From Schmidtea nova (lineage: Eukaryota), in contig CM097882.1 of the NCBI GenBank assembly GCA_044892505.1, forward strand, positions 265,918,001-265,982,000: a stretch of 64,000 nt of DNA. The letters run 5' to 3'. The translations under genes and the position numbers were made by a program. The notes under the pieces are model-generated. The model saw only the letters and a list, made by a program, of their open reading frames with translations. It searched no databases and was not told where the DNA came from. Position 1 is the first letter of the stretch; the number at the start of each line of letters is the position of its first letter. Positions 20,131 to 37,556 of this stretch are shown in pieces.

Positions 20131-20444
20131 AAATAAACTAATATGTTTGTTGATAATAACATGATATACTATGATTAGAGATGTTATAATCATTTAATGC
20201 CTTGTCTTATTTATATGTAATGTTGTGTAAATTATCTATGTAAAAATTTTGCAATACTTAATATTTTGTCATTTTTATAAATAAAAAAAACGTTTGTTTA
20301 TAAAAGGTTAGCGGATACCGCAGAATAAATTTAAAAGATATGAGTTATCGAGTTTTTGATAAATAAATTAAAAAATATATTTATTCAATTCAAAAGTACC
20401 TTTGACAACTTTAATTCAAAATTATAGTTAATAAATTATAAATT

Positions 20445-22145
20445 ATGGATTCTATGGTGTGTGTTCATGATAGATATTATGAATGCTTTCTAAAAACAGC
20501 TGATTATAAACTATTGAGGATATGCTTCAAATGTTTATCGACTATTGTGAAAAACAATCAGCAATTCAGTAGATTGACTAGAATGAAATATCTACAAGAA
20601 TCATTTGATTTGATATCCAACAGTTTGGATATAAGTTCTTCAATCGAATGTGAACAATTATGTGAGATTATGTCGGATTTGTCAGATGACATGACAATGG
20701 AAATTGTTGACAATTACAATGAATTATGCTGTAAATTAATAGTACTGATGTTAGAGCGGGTTGATGAGAAATTGGCAATGAATTGTTTGTGCAAATATCT
20801 AGACCATAATCAGGTTGATACTAGCAACGACAGCAAATACCTAATGATTATCAAGTCACTTTGCATTCATCCACATTCGCTTTTGATGGCATTTGCCCAC
20901 GGCAATAAAGGCAAATTTTTTCAAGATCTTGCAATGATGCTGGGTATGAGTAATGATTATATCAAATGCGTTGTTTGCTACATCTTGGATGTGCTGATTG
21001 ACACGGACCCGGAACTGGTCTCCTGCCTGAAGATGGAAGACATCCTGTCTACTGGTTGATATCATTATCAACCGCGATATCATTGCCAGTCACCACCTGT
21101 GCACCAATGCGACAATTTTAATGATAATTTTACTACGAAGCAGTGCTTCATTCCATGGATGTTTAATGGACATCGTGCAAACTTCCTTCGTGATACGAAA
21201 ATTGATTCTGTCATATGATAAAGAAATTGTTTACGCGAAATACGGAATAAAAATTCCGGACTTACTACTGTCTTCCGAATCCAATGGCGATATAGTTGCT
21301 CATTATTTCACGCAGTCATCAAACGTTACAGAGTACTTATTCGATCTCCTCATTACTGGTAAAAGTTTAATACCGCGCGTTATTAAATGTCTGAAGGCAT
21401 TTGTCAATTGTAAAATATTCTGTCAAACAAATATTTGCACATATGGTTTGACAAATGTCCTACGGTGTTGCCAGAACTATCTAGACGTTCAACATGTAAA
21501 AACACAAGAATTAAAAATCGCCGTTACTGATATTAAAAAAATAACATTAAATATATGGTTTTATGCAAATTATGGAATTATGAATGGACCAGAATCAGAC
21601 AATTATATCAACGCAATCCGATTTATTATACAAGCATCTTCTAATAAGAAAGCCTTCAGTGGAACACTCCCTTATGAGATCCTTCTTGGGGGATTACCCG
21701 ATGATTTCAAGCGACCTTTGGTTTGTCCTGGAATTCATCTTACATTTCTATTTGGCATAACTGAGTGTATGGTAATAATTTTCCATAAATTGAATACAAC
21801 TTATAAATATCCCAAGACACCCAAATTTACCGCATTAGGAGTAATAACCGATAACATTAAAGTGACGAGAAACTATAATATCGATAAAATCACTTACTAC
21901 GTACGTTTCTTGGAGCCAAATAGATATAATGTTCCATGCCTTTTAAAAATAATTATTTCCGAATATTGTCCGGTGATTCAAATTCAAAGTGAAAGTTCAA
22001 TTCACAGTTTCAAGTCCCCATACACAAATACAGTTGCCAAGCAACACAAACTTCGGCCACCGGAACTCTACGAAGTAGTATTGAATTTATTTGTAGAATT
22101 ATTTAAAATTAGTTTCGGGGGAACAAAAATAAAATTGATGAATCG
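20445..22145 (+). pseudogene. Intronless about 570-aa helical-repeat (ARM/HEAT-like) protein gene with one frameshift near 21030-21057, truncated by fusion to integrase
   Basis: ORF 20445-21059 and the frame of 21121-22239 (open upstream as VDIIINRDIIASHHLCTNATILM) overlap. Leu/Ile/Cys-rich amphipathic helical pattern; family not identified. Confidence 0.6.
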
Positions 22146-22193
22146 GCAACCACACCAAAAATCAGAATACCTTGGTGTGATTTCCGGTTCATC

Positions 22194-23200
22194 AAACTTG
22201 GCATCAAACGACTGCGTTCGACTGCATATCATTTGCTGACGAACGGCCTCATCGAGAGATTTCACCGGACACTCAAGCAATCGCTACGTATACTTTTTCT
22301 AAACTATCGCTGGACAAAAGCTTTGCCTTTTGTGTTATTGGGTTGGAGAAACACACCATCCAAGACAACCGAATCGTCCCCAGCTCAATTACTCTTCGGT
22401 TCCCGACGAGCTCATCGACTTCGGGGAGCAACCAACGATCTAAGAACTTATTACCGCCAGACGTCATTTCCTTGAAATTGATGGAAATCCAATCTTTTCG
22501 TCAGCAAACACCGAAAAACCTTTTTATACCGAAATCTCTATCTTCTGCTAAACACGTATGGATTCGTGCTATCGCTGATTTTGCACTAAAGCCTAGATAT
22601 ACTGGACCATTTCGACTATTAGGTATAGTCGGGAACTTTGCAACAGTCGACATTAACGGTTCATCCGAAACAATCTCTCTCACACTTATTAAACCGACAT
22701 TCGGACTTTCGAAATTTGTCCCTACTTTAACTACTTTAACAAACAGTTCAGCACAGACCAATAAAAAATCTGTCAATTCGAGATCTCCACCCATTCTTCC
22801 AGACGTGGATTTAACTATTCCTTCACCGATCGTGCTTACTGAAAATACTTGTTCGCACGAAGCAGATATATCTTCTACACATATAACCAATTGGCCTTCT
22901 AGCTCTGATGGCAAGAACACCACCGGTAGCCCGGAAACAATCGGTTCACCGGCTTACAACGAAACTCCTAGACCACTTTCAATTTTGAAAGAATCTCCCA
23001 TGGCTCATTCTAAGACTGCTTCTACTACAAAGCATCGCGTCACAATCAATCCATGGGTTCGCGAACGCCGTATAGGAGATAATCCTAACGCTCCAACTAG
23101 ACTGCATCGAATACTGTGAATATAATCTTTTCGATCTTTCCTTTTACCTTTTGTTTCTCTTGTCGCCGCACTTGCGTTTTCTTTACCACATGTTGTTCGG
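22194..23200 (+). mobile_element. pol: Gypsy integrase 3' piece and long C-terminal tail (frameshifted)
   Basis: KLGIKRLRSTAYHLLTNGLIERFHRTLKQSLR...ALPFVLLGWRNTPS; PRYTGPF (GPY/F motif); tail ...RRIGDNPNAPTRL resembles 32365-32400. Confidence 0.93.
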
Positions 23201-24494: not shown

Positions 24495-26788
24495 GAAAGT
24501 ATGTGTGTGTAATAAGAATTGAGAGATAAAAACCATCACAAAAGACATTTTGATACTAAAGGTTCGGATAGAAAGGTTCTTCTAGCATGAAAAAAATTAT
24601 TGGAAATATATATAATTACACAACGCGGAGGTATATAAAACGAGCAATAAAACAAAAATATCAAAGTCTTAAAGATCATCACACCAATAAAATAACAAAC
24701 ACACAATATCATCACACTATAGAATTATATGGGCGGTCTGTTCCACTACCCACACGTGTGTTCTCATATTTTTAATTAAATTAAAAATAAAATTCATGTC
24801 TTTGTATTTTAAATTAAAACAAAAAATTCGTATAATTAAAACAAAAAAATTTGGTTAATTTAAACAAAATTTTACTTTATATAAACAAACATATATGTCA
24901 TTATATATGTCATTACATAATCACCGGATTTGTTAAACATTTAATTATATGATTAATATGTAATTATGTAATTAAATGTAATTGTGTGAATATATAATTA
25001 TGTAATTATATAATTAAAAAAGAGGAATAAATGAAGATCATATAAAGGTCAAAATGGGTTATTTAGTTATCTAGACATATGTAGTAGACATGTAGGAGAA
25101 GCCATATAAAATTTTTTTCAACCTGATAACAATTTAATTTATTTATAAAATATTTTATTTCTCATAGATGAAAAGCTTTCAATAAAATAAGATACTTTTT
25201 AAAACAAATTTTATATAATTATGAAGAACTCTGTAACTCGTTAAATATTTTTCTATATATTCTATTTTGATCATGGACACAACTTTTTGATTATATTTCA
25301 AAGATTATAAAAATATAATGTGCTGGTTCTACAAGGAACTTTATTTTATATTTATAAAAATTGAGGTGCGTGTTATACACAGTAAATTAGGGTAAATATA
25401 ATCTATAATTATTAATATAATTCGTGTGGTTGCGTGTAATATTTATGTTTCAATAGATTAAAAACAACTTTCTTTTTCCAAAATAAAACGATTTATTACA
25501 GTCAAATTTATAATATGTTTTTACAATTGAAAGAGCAATACAAAAACGGGATTTTGTAATCCTTGCTGTTTGTTGCAGCCTGCTTTAAATCGTTGGCTCC
25601 TATGTAGGACAAAGATCGCTCAAATAATTTAACAGAAGATCGATAAGTTAGTTGAAAGGATTTTGGCGGACCCAAAGTAAAGAACCCTTCTTTGTATTCG
25701 CTTAATTTTAATAAAAGGGATAAAATTTATCCTTCATTATGCGCCCTTTAATTCAATTTAATTTATAAAATAATAATAATTACTCTGTTTCTGGAATTTT
25801 TCGTTTTCAATTTTTTCTTTCACTAAGAATTTGGCCTGATATTAATATGATTTTCCCCAATCAGAAATCCAGGTGTATTCTAATTGTTTCTCTCATGGGC
25901 TTGAATTTTAGACTCTCTACGCTAAATTCAAGATTTCCTTTTCACTACTTCGATTATCGATTCCATAATTTTGAGCACTCAAACAGCTGCTTTCCTACTT
26001 TATTACTACTAATCCAATTTATTATTTTTCCAAAAGTACTTTTCGCTGCTAATTTTTATTATCGCTCGCACTAAAAATTGATGTCCGTTGTTTTATGTTT
26101 TACTAATATTTATATCATTTTTAAACTATAATTTTTATTTTTGGTAATTCCAAAATTACTATATATAGGGTTATCATAATTTCTCCAAGATAGATCAGTT
26201 CTATTTTTAGTAATTAATCAAAGTTTATTTTTATTTTAAGTAATTATCTATTTCTATTATTGTAATTATTCTATTTTTAGTGATTTTTAATTCTTTGATG
26301 TTTAAGACAAAGGACCAAGTAATTTTGGATTAATTTATGGTTCTTAGTGAATTGCATGATTCGAAATAAATTAAATATTACCCAAAATTTTATTTTTAAT
26401 ATATGGGCTTATACGTGGGTCATCTATTTTGGACTTTTTTCAATTATGCGATTCACATAGAACCCTAAATTAATCCAAAATTACTCGGCCTTTACGCGAA
26501 TATATACGGTTATTCAAAAAGCAATATATTATGTACGATTGACAAATTAAATAAGTAAGCTAGTGAAAACATTTTAGACAATAGAAAAATCAAAATTATT
26601 AATTTAAATTCTTTATTAATTATGAAAAATATTGTTTATCCTTAATTATAAAAATATCGGTTAACCGGTTAACTGGTTAATTAATTATTTTTTAAATCAA
26701 AATTTCCTTTTCTTTTCGATAAGAAATAATCTGCAAGCCTGACAGTATTTTCTTTCAGTGGCTAAAATGATATTTATTTGTGAGACAT

Positions 26789-28031
26789 TTATTTATGATA
26801 AAAGTTTATTCCAATTATCGGGATATATGAGTTTTTGATTAGTTCTTCCGAGATGATCTTTGAAAATATTTTAAAGAAAGATGTTTTTGCTTCATTTTCA
26901 AGCTTGTTGTGGAGGATCGACAGGTAGGATAGGTTGAGAGCTAGCTCATACTTAGGAATTGAAGAGAGATCCACGAATGAAATTAAACCAATGACAGAGT
27001 CTGCGCTAAACTCTCTTTTTGACGAAGCATATCTCACACCACTTTCGATCATAATTCTGAGAGCAGCATGACATGATCTTAGAATCCACATTAATAGTCT
27101 GCTGCGGATCATTGAATCACACTTTGCAAGGAACTTCATAGGATCCACTTCCCACGAACCTAGAGTTGTCATCTCCATGTACGCGTTTTTGATGTTCGAC
27201 ACATTCCGAGAAGTGAGCTCCTTATCTTCAAGATAGACTAGAAGGGAAATCCAAAAATGATTCCAAGTTTGTTTGCTCAATGATAGTGTCACTGTACTCT
27301 TCTTCAAATAGAAAGATCCAGTATCCAATCAATAGAGTCATTTTTAAATGGCAGTGCAAAAGATGTGAACATCTATGTAAAACTAGAGAGTAAAATCTAG
27401 TGACGAATATGCCCGAATTTTTAGATATATTTTTTGAGAATAGTGGTTCTATTTTAAAGTTGATGTCTGAAGATAACAACAGGACGCTAAAAAAGATCGG
27501 ACCTTTAAAGCTAGTCTGCTTTAACAATAACAGTGCGTTGGTTTTGGGTATTCTTTTTAAAACGAATTGGTCATTTCTACATAATTGCAATCTGCTAATG
27601 TTAACTTCCTCTACTAGAATGTTGAGGAACCACAATGAATGAAATAGGTTAGTGTGGAAAACAGTATCTAAGAAGCTATAGTTATCTTTCATTTTAAAAC
27701 CCGAAAAATCTCTTTTCTAAGTACAATCAGCTCATCTTCTTTAATATCCACCTTTGATAATAACACATCTTTAAAATCAAAGCTGCTCTCTACATCCACA
27801 GAAGGTGCATCGGATCTATATGTCTTTTTACTATTGCTTTGACGCTCTATAATCACCTTGTTATTTTTCCATGCTTTCCCACAAACTCCCATCTTTGCAA
27901 GCTCCTATCTATGTTCTTCATTTATGTTCAACTTCACTCTATTCTTGTCCATCTTTGTAACTTTCTTCTTTGGAGAATAATCTTCGTCATTTGATCTCAG
28001 TTCAAGTTCGAACTCCTCATTTGTTCTACAA
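26789..28031 (-). pseudogene. L: Endogenous bunyavirus (phenuivirus-like) L protein, downstream segment (PA-C-like region)
   Basis: LAKMGVCGK; EEVNISRLQLCRNDQFVLKRIPKTNALLLLKQTSFKGPIFFS; SLLVYLEDK...AYMEM...PMKFLAK...RSRLLMW; YLSILHNKLE. Same order as phlebovirus L motifs; one stop and two frameshifts. Confidence 0.85.
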
Positions 28032-30698
28032 CAGGGATGGCGAACCTTTTTTTGACTGCGTGCCAATAAATATTATTTTTATAAAATGAAAATACATGCG
28101 TGCCAATACAAATTATTTTTATTAAATGAAAATACATGCTTTTAAAAATTATATATAGATTCATTTCTATAATATGCTGACATATTTTTTAATGGGATTT
28201 TTGTTGCTGAATATTCCTCGATAATGCATCAATATCCGGATCATAGTTTGACAATTTTAATGAAATACAAGCCTCCCCACATTCATCGGTAAGTCTGTTT
28301 CGTACATCAGATTTTATATTATTCATAATCGAAAATAGACTTTCACAGCTATACGTTGATGAAAATATTGTTAGAATAGCTAAAGACAATTTCTTCATCG
28401 CATTAAATGTTTCTGGGAGCGAACACCATGTCTTCAACAACATATTATTCATGTTTTCGTATTCTTCTTCATTTAATCTTTTTTTTTCATTATTTTCTAT
28501 TTCTTGCCTTAACTCTATAAATTTCAGCTTCCAAATAGAACTTGATTGAAACTCTGCCAACTGCATTTCTAAATTCTCCAACTGCATTTCTAAATTCTCC
28601 AACTGTAACCAGTCTAATTGATCCATTTTAGCAGTTTCCAAATCAAACTTGTCTGGATATTTAATAAAGTTAATTAATGGTTGAAATTTTTTGAAATCTT
28701 GAAATCTCTTAGCAAAATTGTCTTGTATGTCACTTATAACTTGGCTATAAAAATTTATATTAATTTCATAGACTCCATGAATAGAAAATTTTTGAAGGTG
28801 ATCTTTCAACAAAGGAAAATACTTAAAATTATTGTTGTCAATATCGCGTTTAAATATTACTAATTTGGACTCAAAACCTTCAATAATATCGAACATTACA
28901 TCAATTGATTTTCCGGGACCTTGCAATTTAATATTTAATTCATTTCAATCGTTGGAAATATCCGTTAAAAACATTAATTTGGTGATCCAGTTATTATCAA
29001 AAAGTTCAGGAAATTCGGTTTTTTTATCATTAAGAAACATGATAATTTCATCAAAACATTCTACAAAACGTTGTAACACAAATCCTCTACTAAGCCAGCG
29101 TACGTGATTATACATTAACAATCCATGATAATTTGAACCTACCTCTTGTAGAAGCAACTGAAATTGCCGCTTATTCAAAGCTCGAGCTGCTATAAAATTT
29201 ATTATTTTGGAAACAATACTTGAAATATCATCAAATGCTGCCAATCCAGACTTCGCACATAGAACTTCTTGATGAATTATACAATGAAAATTAATAATTG
29301 GATGCCCAACGTGTTCTTGAAAAAGAGATACAAAACCAGCTTGCCGTCCTATCATTGAGGGAGCTCCATCAGTTGTAATTGACACTATTGTTGATGTATC
29401 TATCTCAGCTATTTGAAACGTTTTTATAACTGCATCACTAATATCTTTCCCAGTCGTTTTTGCTGATAAGGAAACTAGTGAAAGCAATTCCTCAACTATT
29501 TTTTTCTCCTTTAGCATAACGAGCAATTATGGACAAGCGAGCTGAAGATGTTACGTCGTTACTTTCATCAAGACATATAGAAAATAGCTTTGCTGAACGT
29601 ATATCATTTATTTTTTTAATATTAATATTTTTATGCATTTTTAATATCCTGTCTTTAACAGTATTTCGACTTATACTTAATTCTTCAATGCGCTTAAGTA
29701 TCTGCTCTTTATTTTGAAAATCTTCAAATAAATGTGGTGCACATTTAATGAAAGCTTCTTTAATATAATCTCCATCGCTAAATGGTTTGCTATGAGTAGC
29801 AATAGTCTTGGAAACCTCAAAACTAGCAGCAACTAAATAATTTGTATGTTTCAAAAATGTAATAAATGAGTTTGATTGTAAAAATCTATTTTTAACTTCA
29901 CGTGCAATATATTCTTTTTGTTCTAAATCACTTTTAGATAAAAGAAATGAATGAGTAGTTTCATAATGTCGTTTTACTGAGGATGTTCTGCACACTACTG
30001 TATTTCCACACAACGCACACAGGGCATTGTTATTGCTTTTCATCATTCCATATTTATCAGTCCACCAATCTTGAAATGGTCTTTTAGAGCTGGCCTCTGT
30101 TTTCCTTTTCTTATTTTCTGACATTCTAAAGTTGAAACATATTATTTATTTATCATTAAAATTGTTAATGAATTACCTTTTGAAATCAATTATAATTGTC
30201 TTCTAAAAATATAAATAGATTTTTTTTATTAGCAAAAAATAATACTAAAATAAGAAAACACAATTTTCAATCGCACTTACAAAGTTTTTAACTGAACTGA
30301 ATTAGAATTAGTGAATTTCAATTTTGGCGAGAATGCAAATATTCATATATATATGTATGTATATATTTGAAAATCCAAAGCATACTATGTTCATTTTAAC
30401 ATTTTTTTATATTTAAAATTACATGTTCATACTTGTACATACCTATACCTACATACGCAAATAATATAATTATATTTTAACGTTATGAATAAAGGCGCCA
30501 GAAATCTGGAAGTTTGTTTTTAAATATCAAAATTTATGCATTAAATTTGAATTGAGTTCACAATTTTTTCAATATCAAAAATGCATTTGGATTAGTCAGT
30601 ACATTACATATGTATGAAAATGAAAAATATTATACGTGCCAGCGAAAATTTATCTGCGTGCCACTTTGGGCACGCGTGCCATAGGTTCGCCATCCCTG
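28032..30698 (-). mobile_element. Complete hAT DNA transposon (Buster group, SPIN/GTF2IRD2-like transposase), 2,667 bp
   Basis: Perfect 16-bp TIRs CAGGGATGGCGAACCT; perfect 8-bp TSD TTCTACAA (28024-28031, 30699-30706). Transposase 30124-28189 with BED-like CxxC..H, LDESND, ITTDGA, FHCIIHQE, RW, STYSCESLFS; one A-run frameshift near 29500 and one in-frame stop at 28945. Confidence 0.98.
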
Positions 30699-31645
30699 TT
30701 CTACAATTTGATATGGCCAAATTCCAAATTTCATCCATAGTCGTTTCTGTGTTTAAAATCTCATTGCTCACAATTTTTAACAAAACTTCTGAACTATACA
30801 AATTATTGATATTTACAAACACTAAAGGTAATTTAATAACTGGCTTTAAGATTTTTGAACAGCTGGCCTTGGAGTTGATCTTTTCACAATAGTCCATTCA
30901 CAAGTCATCGTTTTTTTGCAAGTTGTAGTTTGGATTCTTATTGATGATTTTGCTGACTCTCACTCTATCTTTTAGAGTTTCGTCAAAAGAACTCTCGAAG
31001 TCTCCAAGAGTGTCCATAATGTTCCAAGAAAGAGATTCATTGAGCGTAGTATTAAGCTAGTCCTCTGTGATGATGAGAGGATCTTCGTCAAAATCTGATA
31101 GCACTTGTAATTTGTCAATTTCTGCCAGAATTTCTATCTTTAGCGTATCTTCCTGTCTCTGAAAGTTGAAAATAGAATTCTCCGTACAATACTTTTCAAA
31201 TCTTAATCCTAAGTACATGCCGACTCCCACTCTTCTTAATGTAGATTTTTCGAAATCAAAAAGTGCTCTCAATATTCCCGAGCCAACTACAATTGCACCT
31301 ACAGTGATTTTCTACCCTTTCGATCTTTTCTTCAGAGCCCGCAAGTACTTGGCTATTGCTAAGCTTTCTCTAGTAATTAAGCTTGATTCCTTGGCTGTAT
31401 TTACTGTCTTTAGCTCGATCACCATATAACCATCATTACCTTTAAATATAAAGTCTGGCGTCAGATTTTGATATCAATCGGCAACATCATCCACAATGTT
31501 CACAGATTGATCTGTTTTTGAACTACCAAATAAAATGTCAGCGATTAAATTATGTTGTAATCTTGCTATTTCTTTTTTGCTTAGAACTAACCTATTGCAT
31601 CTCACTAATTTTTCGCTTGCGGTTATTTGATTCATCAGTTTAATG
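30699..31645 (-). pseudogene. L: Endogenous bunyavirus (phenuivirus-like) L protein, upstream segment with cap-snatching endonuclease
   Basis: Single frame with 4 stops: LQHNL (H 31554)...KTDQ...NLTPDF (PD 31458)...VIELKT (E 31416, K 31410)...AIAKYLRALKKRSKG*KITVGAIVVG...KPVIKLP; rejoins 28023 in frame once the hAT is removed. Confidence 0.88.
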
Positions 31646-32291
31646 AATCGACATTGCAAATAATTTTAGGGGTAATTGTCGATTCATTAAAATTAAATTT
31701 TGACTCGTAAAAAGTAATAAATAAATTGAATAATACTTTGCGGTATTCCAGTGATTGAAGTTGCTGTTGCGACTGTATAAAACGAACTGCTTCGTAATGG
31801 AAGCCCAAAGAGTTTGTTTAAACATACAAAACAATTTAAACAAATACATTTTATAATTAATACTATTAATATTAAAAATAAATAATAGTTCATAACAAAA
31901 TGTTGGATTGTTTGACGGAGACACGTAGATTGAAAAAATAAATAGATTTTTTTTACATTGAGATTATCTAATTTTCTTCAAGAATTTATTAATATGAAAA
32001 TATCATTCTTGGTCTATTTTTTCAATCTCTTGTTATTAATCGCTCTTTGATTGAATGGAACTGAAAGTGGAGGTCAATTGGACGGATTAGACAATTCATA
32101 AACAATAATGTTCGCTTTCGAAATTATTAGGAAACTTCAGCGATTTGTTGTCATGGTTATTATTGACAAATTTAGATGGGTGCTGAGTATCAGTAGACGT
32201 TGTAAAAAAATCAGTATTTTTGAAAAGTATTTTCGCGACAAGAATATTAGGAACAGATGCGAGAGAAGGAATGATTAGGAATGGAAATGAT
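31646..32291 (-). repeat. 646-bp direct repeat, downstream copy (putative non-canonical 3' LTR)
   Basis: Near-identical to 36653-37298 (about 2 differences seen); begins right after the PPT GGGGGG(TA). Confidence 0.9.
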
Positions 32292-33136
32292 TACCCCCCA
32301 TCCAGAAACGCTGAGCGTTTTTAAAAAAAAATTTAGAAATGTTAATCTTGATGACAACCCCAAGTTACAAATCGTTGGTTCTAGATAAGCGAGTTGGTAA
32401 GTTTGGGTTTTCGCCGATTCTTTTAGTTCGGTCCCAGTCTGCTATACGAACTTTCTTGATTTGTTGTACTTTGGGTATCTTATTCAATGGTTTTAGAATG
32501 GGGTTCAGTGTAGATTTTGGAATAGCAGTAGGTTGAATATTTATGTCTTTCGACTGTTCCAATATAGTTGCAGGGATAAACCATGTGTTATCTGGTTGAG
32601 ATGATTGTGTTGGCCTCTGAATTGGAATTTGGTTTTGGTTAGATCTTTATTGTAATGTACTGGGTGATGGGCTTTCAATTTGTAACGATGTGACTGATTA
32701 ATTAGTTATGAGGGGTGGAGTGCTTTCGTTTTTGATTGAAAGCAATTTTGGTGGTAATAAAAATTGATGAGGTAAACGAACGACGGTCGGGTTATCCTTC
32801 TGGAAATTATGAATTTGTGTGGTGAATGGTAGTATGGGGTGTTTCAGCCAAAGTTTGCCTGAACAAACTTTGGCTGTTTTTGCTGCATGTGTATTTTTCA
32901 TTTTAAAGCGTCTGTGTGCGCTACCACCAATTGATCAGCGTCTGTGTGCGCATTTTTTAATTGGAGTTATTTTGGATAGGTAAATTTGTAATTTGGAGTT
33001 TAATTGATTTTTAGATTTAATTTTAAGAATTTTTAGATTAGGTTTATTATTGTTTAAATACTCCAATGGAATTTAATTTAGTTTTGATTTGGATTTTAGT
33101 TTCGATTTGGGTGAATTTAGGAATGGAGATCTAGAT
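32292..33136 (-). mobile_element. pol: Gypsy integrase low-complexity C-terminal tail, 3' UTR and polypurine tract
   Basis: ...KKVRIADWDRTKRIGENPNLPTRL resembles the 23119 tail; CGCTCAGCGTTTCTGGATGGGGGGTA PPT at 32292-32317. Confidence 0.75.
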
Positions 33137-33820
33137 TTGTTTCTTTTGAATATTCTTATGAATTCTGGCAAAAAGGTGTATCGAAAATGGAATTTTCATT
33201 GTTTAACTATCCTTTCGCATTCGATGGTATTACGAAAACTCATTTGATGAAAATTGAGGCTAAATGCTTAATGTCAGAAGATTTACCATGCTTCGTAGCA
33301 CAAAGCAGTTTTCATATTACTGTACGAAGAGATAATTTGCTAGGTGATACCGTTAGCCAGTTGCAGCGTGCTTCTCAATGTCACCTTAAAAGGCCATTTA
33401 GGGTTAATTTCATGGGTGAAGATGCTTTAGATGAAAGCGGGGTAATGAAGGAATTGTTCTTACTTGTTGTGCCTCAAGTTTTAAATCCCGATTATGGTCT
33501 CTTTGAAATGTATCCTGAATCAAGACTCTGCTGGTTTAACAAAATGATATTTGATGATAATCTACCGCAGTTTAATGCAATCGGTAGATTGTTTGGTCTG
33601 GCAATTTACAATAATGTTATGATTGATCTTCACTCTCCTCTTGTAATGTTCAAAACATTGTTCAATGAAAAGGCTAATCTAGATGATTTAATCGAGCTCA
33701 ATCCAACCTTGGGGAAATCATTACAGACGTTACTTTATTTCGGTCAAGATGATTTTGAGAATATATTCATGCTTAATTTTGTTATTCCCCCCGGTTCATT
33801 TGACAATAAAATTGAAAGGA
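33137..33820 (+). pseudogene. Captured HECT E3 ubiquitin ligase fragment (small HERC3/4-like N-lobe), antisense to the host Gypsy
   Basis: FNYPFAFD, VRRDNLLGDT, LKRPFRVNFMGEDALDESGVMKELF, NPDYGLF..YPESRLCWF, IGRLFGLAIYN, DDLIELNPTLGKSLQTLL. No C-lobe or catalytic Cys; no introns. Confidence 0.93.
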
Positions 33821-36652
33821 TGTTGCGTTCTGTTGGAAACATGGGGTCTGGAGGATTTGGCGGTGTAAAGTCTTGTGTCTCAGAATGAAATGTAATATTT
33901 GTAGGACTGAGGTCTTCTTCCACATAACCAAAAGCTGGCTTGAGACGGGCTAGATTTATAATTGAATCTATTCCATTAATGGAAACTTTTGCAGTGCTGT
34001 TATCGAATATTTGGAGAAGAGGACACGGTCCTTCATAGCGTGGTCTTAGGCCTATATCAGCAATTGAACGGATCCATACATGTGTTGCGCGATCGAAAGA
34101 TCTGGGAATATATGGCTTGTAAGTGTTAGCCATTGAAAAGTTTGGGTTTGAGTCCAAAGATAGGAAATGATTTCTTGCATCAGCTAGGTTTTCTAAAGTT
34201 GGTTCAGAGTTTAGCTCGACGAGTTCGTTTGGTAAAATGACGTCAGTACCAAACATGAGTTGTGATGGAGAAGAACCAGTTGTTTTCGATGGCGTATTGC
34301 GCCATCCTAGTAAAACAAAAGGTAAGGCCTTTGCCCAGTTCTTTGAAGTTGAGAGGATTCGGAGGGATGCCTTGAGTGTGCGGTGAAACCGCTCGACAGC
34401 TCCATTTGTTTGTGGGTGGTAGGCACTAGTCCTGAGGTGTTTAATTCCTAGTTGTGCAGAAAGTTGTTTAAAAAGATTGGATTCGAACTGGGGTCCTTGA
34501 TCGGTAATGAAATGTAGAGGAACACCAAATATCGAGATCCAATGTTCTATGATCGTCGATGCTACAATCTAGGCAGAAATAGATTTTAAAGGATCTGCGA
34601 CTGGGAAACGAGTTTTTCTGTCCAGCATGGTTAGTATATATGTGTAACCGTTGTCTGGAGGAAATGGTCCAACAAGATCAACATGCACCACTTCAAAACG
34701 GTTTCCAGTTGGAAAGCTATGTAAAGGTGGGCGAGTATGACTGTGGATCTTGTGTTGTTGACATCCTAAGCAAGATTCACACCAGTCTTTTGCGTCCTGT
34801 CTCATACTTGGCCAAATGACACGAGAACGGAGTAAGTTATATGTTGCAGAAATACCGGGGTGATGAAGGTTATGGGTGTGATTGAAAGCTTCGCGTCTTA
34901 GCTTTTCTTGCAAAATTGGGCGGATATTTCCAGATAAGGCGTTGTCGTAATAGATGCCTTTATCAAAAAGCGTTGTATTTTGGAAGAATGACAGGTCTCT
35001 TGCGGAAGGTGGTAAAGACCTGAGAACATCATCAGTGAAGATCGGCTCAGTAGTGATAGTTGCAACAAGATTTCGCGATAGATAATCTGCTACAATATTC
35101 TGGCGACCTGGAAGAGAGTGATAGTGAACGCAAATTCTGATAAGTAACTAATTTGACGTCCCTGTCTTGGTGAAGGAGTCTTCATTTCCATCATGTGAAC
35201 TAGAGGTTTATGGTCAGTTTGTATAGAAAAAGATCTGCCTTCGAGGAGATAACGGAAATGGCGAACTGATTCATATATTGCTAACAATTCGCGGTCGAAC
35301 TTGGAATAGCGTTGTTCCTGTGCAGTTAATTTACGTGAAAAAAATTCAATTTTCTCCTGTCAACCTGTGTTGTTTTGTTCGAGAACTCCAGCAATGCCAA
35401 TGTTGGACGCGTCGGTAGTTAAAAATAGAGGTAGGTTGCTCTTTATGTAGGACAAAGATTGTGCAGTAGAGATTGTGTCCTTAACGGATTGAAAAGCTCT
35501 TTCAAGTTCGTCATTTTACGGTAGGAGAGAGTGTTTTGGACCGCTACAGAGAGCAGAAAGAGGTGCGGTGACCTCGGATATTCTTGGGATGAATCGGTGA
35601 CAGAAATTAACAGTTCCTAAGAAGCTGCGCATTTGGGAAACTGTATTTGGTCGTGAAAATTTGCGGATTGTATCTAGGCGTTCTGGAAGTGGTCTTACTC
35701 CGGAAGTCGATACAAGACGCCCAAGAAATCTAATTACCGATTGAAAGAAAGAACATTTGTCCAAGTTAATTTGCAAATTGTTATTGTGTAGTAACTTGAA
35801 CACTTCTTTGATATGTTCCAAATGTTCCGTTGCATATTTGGAGCTGATGAGGATGTCGTCGATGTATGCCACCATATATTTCTTGTCCCTTAAAATATTA
35901 TCGATGTGTCGCTGGAAGGTTTGAGCTGGGTTCCGTAGACCGAATGGCATGTATTTGTATTCGAACAAGTCAAAAGGGGTAATGAAGGCGGTCTTTGGGA
36001 CGTCTTCTGGTGATACCAGGATTTGGCGGTAAGCCTTTTTTAGGTCTAGGGTAGAGAAGATTGTAGCTTCAAGTAATCTCGAAAGAACGTCTGATATCAG
36101 CGGCATGGGACAAGAGTCATGTACAGTGACTTTGTTGGGGCGTCTGTAGTCACATCAGGCGCGAATAGATCCGTCTTTTTTTGTAACCACGTAGATGGGT
36201 GATGCCCACGGGGAATGCGATCGGTGGATAATACCGGCTGCGAGTAGCTTATTGAATTCTTCCTTGATAAGTGTGAGCTTCTCGGGCGCGAGTGGTCGCA
36301 TGCGTTCTCTAAGAGGCATACCGTTATTGGTGACTATGACGTGTAGAAAAGAGGGAGTTTGTTGGTGATTGTTTGATCTAATTTCGACGTTTGGAAAAGT
36401 CTTTAGTAGTTGTTGTTTACAGTAAGGTGTGGCGAGTAGGACATTGAGAGCGTCGCTACAGAGATGGTCAAGAACTTGAGCTCTAGGTGAGTGCTGTGAA
36501 AGGATTAATTTGCGTTCTCTACAATCAGTCAGTAAACCTTCAGCATCGAGAAAATCGGCACCTAAGAGTGGATGAATGACCTCGGCGACTTGGAATGTCC
36601 ATGAAAAAGTTTTAGACAGGCCAGGAATTCGGAATACTAAATTCTTGGTTCC
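33821..36652 (-). mobile_element. pol: Ty3/Gypsy pol (partial protease, RT, RNase H, integrase), several frameshifts; gag and protease N-terminus absent
   Basis: PLLGADFL; SPWASP; LDLKKAYRQ; YKYMPFGLRNPAQTFQR; YIDD; TDASNIG; RELLAIY; TDHKPL; HNLHHPG..CESC; VHVDLVGP; TDQGPQFES; TNGAVERFHR; PRYEGP. Confidence 0.97.
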
Positions 36653-37298
36653 AATCGACATTGCAAATAATTTTAGGGGTAATTGTCGATTCATTAAAAT
36701 TAAATTTTGACTCGTAAAAAGTAATAAATAAATTGAATAATACTTTGCGGTATTCCAGTGATTGAAGTTGCTGTTGCGACTGTATAAAACGAACTGCTTC
36801 GTAATGGAAGCCCAAAGAGTTTGTTTAAACATACAAAACAATTTAAACAAATACATTTTATAATTAATACTTTTAATAATAAAAATAAATAATAGTTCAT
36901 AACAAAATGTTGGATTGTTTGACGGAGACACGTAGATTGAAAAAATAAATAGATTTTTTTTACATTGAGATTATCTAATTTTCTTCAAGAATTTATTAAT
37001 ATGAAAATATCATTCTTGGTCTATTTTTTCAATCTCTTGTTATTAATCGCTCTTTGATTGAATGGAACTGAAAGTGGAGGTCAATTGGACGGATTAGACA
37101 ATTCATAAACAATAATGTTCGCTTTCGAAATTATTAGGAAACTTCAGCGATTTGTTGTCATGGTTATTATTGACAAATTTAGATGGGTGCTGAGTATCAG
37201 TAGACGTTGTAAAAAAATCAGTATTTTTGAAAAGTATTTTCGCGACAAGAATATTAGGAACAGATGCGAGAGAAGGAATGATTAGGAATGGAAATGAT
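36653..37298 (-). repeat. 646-bp direct repeat, upstream copy (putative non-canonical 5' LTR)
   Basis: Identical boundaries to 31646-32291; followed on the minus strand by GG of protease codons ATT GGA ACC. Confidence 0.9.
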
Positions 37299-37556
37299 GT
37301 GACAACAGAACATTACAATCATTTTATATAAAAGTCGATTCGCATTTTATTTCTGCTCGTCATTCATATTATTAACTTCCTGATTTACTGCACCAGTTTA
37401 ATTGACATTTTCAATCATATTTCCATTTTGCCTAATTATCAGCATAAGGCCTTCGTGAAAGGTAATTATTCGTAATAATTTCATTTAATCAATAAATCCT
37501 TTAATCAGTGTAATATCAATTTATTTATATAAATGACCAAATTTGAATATTTTGAA

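Follow-up and report, generated by a model that had tools for sequence, protein, structure and literature searches.

Fossils of bunyaviruses are well known from arthropod genomes. Since bunyaviruses do not pass through a DNA stage, any chromosomal copy of their genes has to be the work of a reverse transcriptase of the host. Here, we analyzed a stretch of 64,000 nucleotides (nt) from the planarian Schmidtea nova (assembly GCA_044892505.1, contig CM097882.1, positions 265,918,001 to 265,982,000 of the forward strand; chromosome C1 in our numbering), which carries on its minus strand a fragment of a bunyavirus L (polymerase) gene and which as a whole is called the window. In the literature searched, which left most subscription papers outside, we found no report of bunyavirus fossils from planarians. 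The locus belongs to an already known type of element, for which this host group had not turned up in that literature.

The closest described virus is Tricladiphe virus, whose L protein (DAZ87940.1) was recovered from the transcriptome of the triclad Procotyla fluviatilis. According to the accessible part of its description, it is not assigned to a family, only an L and a nucleoprotein (N) segment are on record, the published tree lists it beside Wuhan spider virus and Laurel Lake virus, and its authors state that their viruses are absent from available flatworm genomes (PMC9241645). The planarian copies resemble this virus in being its sister lineage in both trees described below, in having a triclad host and in comprising L and N only, here as fragments. 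In contrast, Tricladiphe virus is exogenous and known from a transcriptome, whereas the window piece is decayed, chromosomal and 29–48% identical. Non-retroviral endogenous viral elements of Aedes mosquitoes (PMC6797480) and the phasmavirus nucleoprotein endogenized in Chaoborus (PMC6620529) are, as far as the accessible parts of these reports go, comparable in that many RNA virus fragments occur, clustered and sometimes joined to long terminal repeat (LTR) elements, but the host described here is a flatworm and its retroelement junctions are not enriched. For mosquitoes, the same source reports that LTR elements capture viral RNA by copy-choice recombination (PMC6797480). Endogenous densovirus NS1 genes of Platyhelminthes (PMC13055364) are also viral fossils in flatworm chromosomes, but they stem from a DNA virus, for which reverse transcription is unneeded, and the main text of that report does not contain the words bunya or Tricladida.

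The viral stretch of the window consists of four single-frame pieces (minus strand, about 31600–30699 and 28031–26835), which are collinear with one full-length L protein, that of Tricladiphe virus (2077 amino acids, aa). Pairwise identity amounted to 30% over residues 85–380 of Tricladiphe L (E = 8e-36), 29% over residues 420–488 (pairwise E = 1e-6), 40% over residues 511–640 (E = 6e-24) and 48% over residues 647–795 (E = 3e-43). Part 1 (Table 1) matched the Pfam family L_protein_N (PF15518) with an E-value of 3.1e-7, which exceeds the curated cut-off, and its His-type PD-(D/E)xK endonuclease residues align with those of Tricladiphe L. The locus thus combines homology to an RNA virus beyond any cellular family with host flanks and with decay and insertions that followed integration, and the fragment is confirmed as a non-retroviral endogenous viral element derived from a bunyavirus L gene. 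A single-sequence structure model of the endonuclease fold reached a pLDDT (predicted local distance difference test score) of 35 and was set aside. Piece 1 had no match among the sequences of solved structures and none in a word-index protein search that was limited to proteins of at most 2000 aa and thereby excluded most full-length L proteins.

The reading frame is broken by five stops (31476, 31314, 31059, 30900, 27907) and shifts twice, close to 27710 and close to 27290. The window copy reaches only to about residue 795 and lacks the polymerase core from pre-motif A through motif E, and the first ~84 residues of L left no trace in the window or in the 30 kb preceding it; a location of the missing start beyond the nested block described below was therefore rejected. 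A methionine at ~31635 was likewise rejected as viral start because it sits in host repeat sequence. Most of what the first-pass annotation of this stretch had proposed was recovered: an endogenous bunyavirus L fragment (PF15518 match and collinear alignment), the listed motifs in addition to the endonuclease, the stop before the RNA-dependent RNA polymerase core, five stops and two frameshifts (all inside the homologous part), and a hAT transposon splitting the fragment, recognizable by its inverted repeats and target duplication. Its estimate of the N-terminal ~700 aa in ~2.2 kb stands for the number of codons (about 700, over 31600–26835 without the hAT), but the length is ~2.09 kb and the extreme N-terminus is lacking. 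The term "old" fossil applies to the decay, but it is relative: five stops in 2019 nt correspond to 4.5–7% neutral change (95% range 1.5–17%), i.e., only about 5–7%. The window copy makes no working protein, and taken alone it is an ordinary dead fragment.

Table 1. Positions (within the 64,000-nt window) of the viral fragment and of the sequences inserted in or joined to it
Feature	Position	Strand	Description
L fragment, part 1	30699..31600	-	Cap-snatching endonuclease (His, LTPD, ELKT, AKY) and linker; residues ~84-380 of Tricladiphe L; 4 stops
L fragment, part 2	26835..28031	-	Linker and PA-C-like region, residues ~381-795; 1 stop, 2 frameshifts; ends before pre-motif A
hAT DNA transposon in fragment	28032..30698	-	Broken transposase (zf-C2H2_12, Dimer_Tnp_hAT); length 2667 nt, with 16-nt inverted repeats at its ends and an 8-nt target duplication
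Gypsy scrap, 3' 40 nt	31600..31639	-	GAG-ENV-POL gypsy, stretch between gag and gB-type env; fused to first viral codon
Gypsy scrap, 5' 120 nt	37321..37441	-	Same GAG-ENV-POL gypsy scrap; displaced by later nested insertion
Younger nested block	31640..37320	-	Two 646-nt LTR-like copies enclosing gypsy pol (~36652-33841) and high-copy HECT-domain piece (33047-33841)
Degenerate host repeat at 3' junction	26514..26828	-	Unrelated repeat

That the fragment lies in the chromosome is also evident from contigs of four public sequencing runs, which covered both parts at the single-copy depth of the flanks (run X1: 61–77 vs. 55–59) and bridged both the 3' junction and the 5' junction at 31600 in 4/4 runs. 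These runs come from one study, which is possibly the source of the assembly, so they are not independent of it, and this leaves some room for an assembly artefact or contaminating viral sequence. Single-copy depth, junction-spanning contigs, the lack of a DNA stage in this kind of virus, the stops and frameshifts, and a host transposon with target duplication inside the fragment make such an origin a negligible concern. In run X4, a contig over 31016–31782 that crosses the 5' junction shows 5 differences and ~3.5× local depth; it may represent another allele or copy in that sample.

The insertions at the locus can be ordered. The hAT element, flanked by its target duplication copies (28024–28031 and 30699–30706), is present at ~10× single-copy depth (~10 copies) and differs by 5–7 substitutions from its family contig, which makes it a recent element. 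The two LTR-like copies of the nested block (31646–32291 and 36653–37298) are 99.7% identical; they are deleted versions of an LTR-like element, the solo copies of which carry 5-nt target duplications. The whole block is an insertion because the 120 nt and 40 nt flanking it are contiguous in other copies of the older repeat. Since divergence is about 0.3% in the hAT element and between the two LTR-like copies, against 4.5–7% decay of the viral piece, both arrived after it. Because the adjoining repeat is an internal stretch of a GAG-ENV-POL gypsy element, the real 5' viral edge lies at about 31600. Here virus and element share their orientation, and the join falls inside the element, not at one of its ends; other copies of the element continue past this point into env. 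Compared with the most similar copy, the scrap shows 18 differences in 159 aligned bases (11%). The 3' viral edge at about 26835 abuts the unrelated host repeat; of the gypsy element, ~160 nt remain, and it does not resume beyond the viral piece. Thus, the edges given initially (31645 and 26710) had to be moved inward by 45 and ~125 nt, the outer sequence being host repeats, and the 646-nt repeat was rejected as vehicle of the fragment, as it is the edge of a younger block inside an older retroelement scrap.

An uninterrupted polymerase-core frame from another locus of the genome yielded 520 matches against 1.84 billion representatives. The best of these was Tricladiphe virus L (297 bits, 56% identity), the next one scoring 203 bits, and Tricladiphe L was also the top match among 152 for 3/4 window pieces. 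In a tree of the PA-C-like region (125 rows, 164 columns), six genome copies including the window copy formed a clade (support 98 in the Shimodaira–Hasegawa-like approximate likelihood ratio test, SH-aLRT) that is sister to Tricladiphe virus (98). In a tree of the polymerase core (61 rows, 396 columns), ten genome copies formed a clade (SH-aLRT 99) and grouped with Tricladiphe virus (100). A branch with SH-aLRT values of 97–100 sets all named phenuivirus rows apart from the genome copies and Tricladiphe virus. These data support the view that the lineage is phenuivirus-related but not nested in Phenuiviridae, the unrooted trees still allowing a sister position. The label "phenuivirus-like" in the first-pass annotation, which had also called for this phylogeny, holds in the sense of relatedness, but the copies fall outside the clade of all named phenuiviruses, with Tricladiphe virus as sister. 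An approximately unbiased test that joined the copies with 11 phenuivirus rows rejected this grouping (p = 9e-7); we give it no weight, since four phenui-related rows were left outside the group and 23/61 rows were dropped. Viral contigs yielded relatives at 26 loci with 38–50% identity, none as close as Tricladiphe virus. Core pieces from other loci matched L structures of 2084–2123 aa with E-values of 1e-19 to 1e-24, compared with 2e-4 for La Crosse virus; from their codes, we take the former entries to be those of SFTSV and Rift Valley fever virus. Judged from these comparisons, the source virus represents a different, unsampled branch next to Tricladiphe virus, because identity to its L is only 29–48% (56% in the core of another copy).

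The host group was identified independently. The mitochondrial COX1 of the assembly is open under the flatworm code, and its top named matches are triclads (Bipalium, Obama, Bdellocephala, Dugesiidae), which places the host in Tricladida at a level above the family. A decayed nuclear COX1 copy at 352.4 Mb of C1 (L108) is 81% identical over 1084 nt to the COX1 on contig C101, and since it lies on the window's chromosome, it ties the mitochondrial gene to the window's genome. With Tricladiphe virus also coming from a triclad, virus lineage and host group agree independently.

When we searched the whole genome, we found at least 44 loci with L or N fragments of the Tricladiphe-type lineage. Matches numbered at least 44 for piece 1, at least 27 for piece 4, at least 17 for Bunya_RdRp and at least 16 for Tenui_N; the locus count was obtained by merging the 57 places found with these four queries over a distance of 100 kb, a distance of 20 kb giving 53 loci and one of 500 kb giving 40. 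These loci and their Tricladiphe-sister clade bear out the earlier suggestion that a divergent bunyavirus lineage infected this host lineage. A search for the rest of L, for N and for the glycoproteins (Gn/Gc), also proposed there, was successful in part. At other loci, core pieces follow immediately downstream of a stretch that is homologous to the last viral piece of the window, and with core and C-terminal pieces present elsewhere, the idea that capture was restricted to N-terminal L pieces was rejected. Tenui_N (PF05733) gave at least 16 genome matches, which are tied to the L lineage by shared termini and direct N–L fusions and not by the window locus. Phlebovirus_G2 (PF07245) gave none, but the controls gave none either, so this search was without a positive control. 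The copies thus resemble Phenuiviridae in the order of endonuclease motifs, in a Tenui_N nucleoprotein and in the terminus ACACAAAG, and differ in their position outside the named members and in the lack of Phlebovirus_G2 matches in the search just described.

According to the accessible part of a published study (PMC9228739), tenuiviruses and a disco-like virus carry this terminus; it is common to neighbouring families and does not decide on membership in Phenuiviridae. Among 21 copies reaching their own 5' end, 9 carry ACACAAAG exactly and 13 within one mismatch, compared with 0.1% and 5.8% of control windows, respectively. The preserved termini imply that in many cases the cDNA reached the extreme end of the viral RNA. 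The window copy itself is without a viral terminus.

Comparison of the window copy with 25 other loci gave proportions of synonymous differences (pS) of 0.62–0.89 and of nonsynonymous differences (pN) of 0.13–0.48. The synonymous substitution rate (dS) was saturated in 19/25 comparisons, and in the remaining 6 the ratio of the nonsynonymous to the synonymous rate (dN/dS) was 0.09–0.35; the copies carry 0–9 stops each. Synonymous sites at or near saturation together with low amino-acid change and few stops mean that the divergence arose in replicating viruses, and consequently the copies are, local duplications aside, separate integrations from different viruses. That all copies go back to a single integration or very few, multiplied by duplication or transposition, or to a domesticated gene family, is highly improbable. 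Local duplications do exist, namely a seven-copy tandem array on C1 (610.30–610.33 Mb, L036 and L037; unit ~4.4 kb, the same L fragment in each) and near-identical pairs on C2, but the substitution pattern contradicts this origin for the 25 loci compared, breakpoints and flanks differ in each copy, and viral segment termini are retained. A second L fragment (L065), 25 kb ahead of the window start and on the same strand, is 72% identical in the shared piece and is a separate nearby integration because its synonymous sites are saturated relative to the window copy.

Loci are concentrated in the first 25 Mb of C2, which make up 2% of the genome: 13/44 lie there against 0.9 expected, and 0/5000 uniform simulations matched this in any 25-Mb window (example loci L034, L043, L063, L069–L072, L109, L111, L130–L133, L137, L141). 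At six loci (L109, L130, L031, L069, L070, L136), N and L pieces occur on the same strand, fused or at most 2.1 kb apart. Both direct fusions (L109:1866-1337 and L130:4625-5582) enter L just before the endonuclease His, which suggests a template change between viral RNAs during copying. For the N fragments of L109–L116, 13/16 matched stretches are free of stops, several matches sit within frames of at least 200 aa, and many keep the viral 5' terminus; these fragments may reflect recent integration or host use. At L041:7692-8366, a parvovirus NS1-like frame was seen ~1 kb from an L fragment.

For the origin of the locus, we consider it very likely that a triclad-infecting, phenuivirus-related bunyavirus of the Tricladiphe lineage was reverse-transcribed by a host retroelement and integrated, that the copy decayed neutrally, and that such captures were repeated independently dozens of times. 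A negative-strand virus of this lineage would have infected heritable cells of a triclad, where, as we infer, the reverse transcriptase of a host retrotransposon would have copied part of the viral L RNA. The resulting cDNA was joined into chromosome C1 and presumably decayed neutrally, and the hAT element and the LTR-like block inserted in and beside the piece later on. The independent repeats drew on various viruses of the lineage, with N as well as L RNAs captured.

Several observations weigh against parts of this scenario. Neutrality of the window copy was deduced from stop counts and not from orthologues. Retroelement sequence was not enriched at copy edges, either at the protein level (4/138 edges vs. 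11/357 control positions) or at the DNA level (2/136 vs. 9/323, three loci repeating others being excluded); the library was small and home-made, and the protein-level test missed the window locus's own junction and is insensitive to short scraps. No target duplications stand out in 14 copies with terminus. Furthermore, the PA-C-like tree is the only one that holds the window copy, and both trees were quick, unrooted searches without outgroup, with SH-aLRT values as sole support.

How the viral cDNA was joined to the chromosome is less clear. The locus could derive from one chimeric cDNA that arose by template switching between the RNA of the GAG-ENV-POL gypsy element and the viral L RNA inside a retrotransposon particle. 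We put this forward tentatively. The junction joins the first viral codon to the interior of an LTR element of matching orientation, other copies of which run into env, the 11% divergence of the scrap is about twice the viral decay of 5–7%, so that the ages are compatible, and copy-choice recombination of this kind has been reported for mosquito Ty3/gypsy elements in the part of the source cited above (PMC6797480). However, only 160 nt of the element are left, there is no return to it at the other edge, such junctions are not enriched in other copies, and later deletion in a repeat-rich genome would give an identical picture. We lean towards end-joining capture, or a later deletion that brought virus and element together, as the route at this locus.

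A further explanation concerns the function of the fragments: they might constitute an antiviral memory, gathered in regions that produce PIWI-interacting RNAs (piRNAs) and yielding small RNAs against circulating viruses of the lineage in stem cells. The clustering of 13/44 loci on C2, the tandem array on C1, the same-strand N and L pieces within 2.1 kb at several loci and the precedent described for Aedes mosquitoes in the accessible part of that report (PMC6797480) would fit such a role. On the other hand, the window copy lies on C1, outside the C2 cluster, low recombination or weak selection against insertions could also produce clustering, and with synonymous sites saturated, each copy would match its own source virus only. 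We regard this role as rather unlikely.

Some neighbouring mobile elements deserve description. The LTR-like element of the nested block (window 31646–32291 and 36653–37320; L003–L012) has short imperfect inverted ends and a 3' hairpin, and its 5-nt target duplication is exact in 5/7 distinct full copies seen. Other copies carry pieces of host genes (CNOT1 N-terminus, PRP38); the CNOT1-like cargo gave no match in the word-index search of proteins of at most 2000 aa. The HECT ubiquitin-ligase piece at 33047–33841 showed very high read depth and is 96% identical to a copy adjoining a BEL/Pao-type pol (also L141:7241-8029 and L039), a host domain carried by mobile elements. Gypsy elements arranged as gag, gB-type env (Monjiviricetes_fusion), pol form a family that was found at loci L146–L153, L158 and L160; gag-env-pol order in gypsy elements has already been described for Platyhelminthes (PMC13524379, accessible part). 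Two long plus-strand frames (205 and 402 aa) at 20442–22239 had no Pfam match and are followed by a gypsy 3' remnant (22181–23119). At L027:8231-10000, one frame matches HSP90, ubiquitin and BEL gag (DUF1759), a retroelement with captured host pieces.

The fragments prove at the genome level that triclads are indeed infected by the Tricladiphe lineage, which one transcriptome had revealed, and that it reaches their heritable cells. The loci show this lineage to be a diverse group that was sampled dozens of times, and the termini, together with the apparent restriction to L and N, describe a virus group with almost no sequenced members. The locus is of value mainly because it opens up, in a model group of animals, an extensive fossil record of a virus lineage that has hardly been sampled. 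Owing to the clustering, a piRNA role is directly testable with existing planarian small-RNA methods. In its fullest form, a speculative proposal drawn by analogy, the planarian would keep a large, clustered archive of independent L and N captures from a two-segment, glycoprotein-less, vertically inherited bunyavirus radiation and would draw on it in its stem cells for an antiviral memory that is heritable and based on piRNAs. If this were true, antiviral memory of the mosquito type would exist in a lophotrochozoan laboratory model, the PIWI genes of which are open to knockdown.

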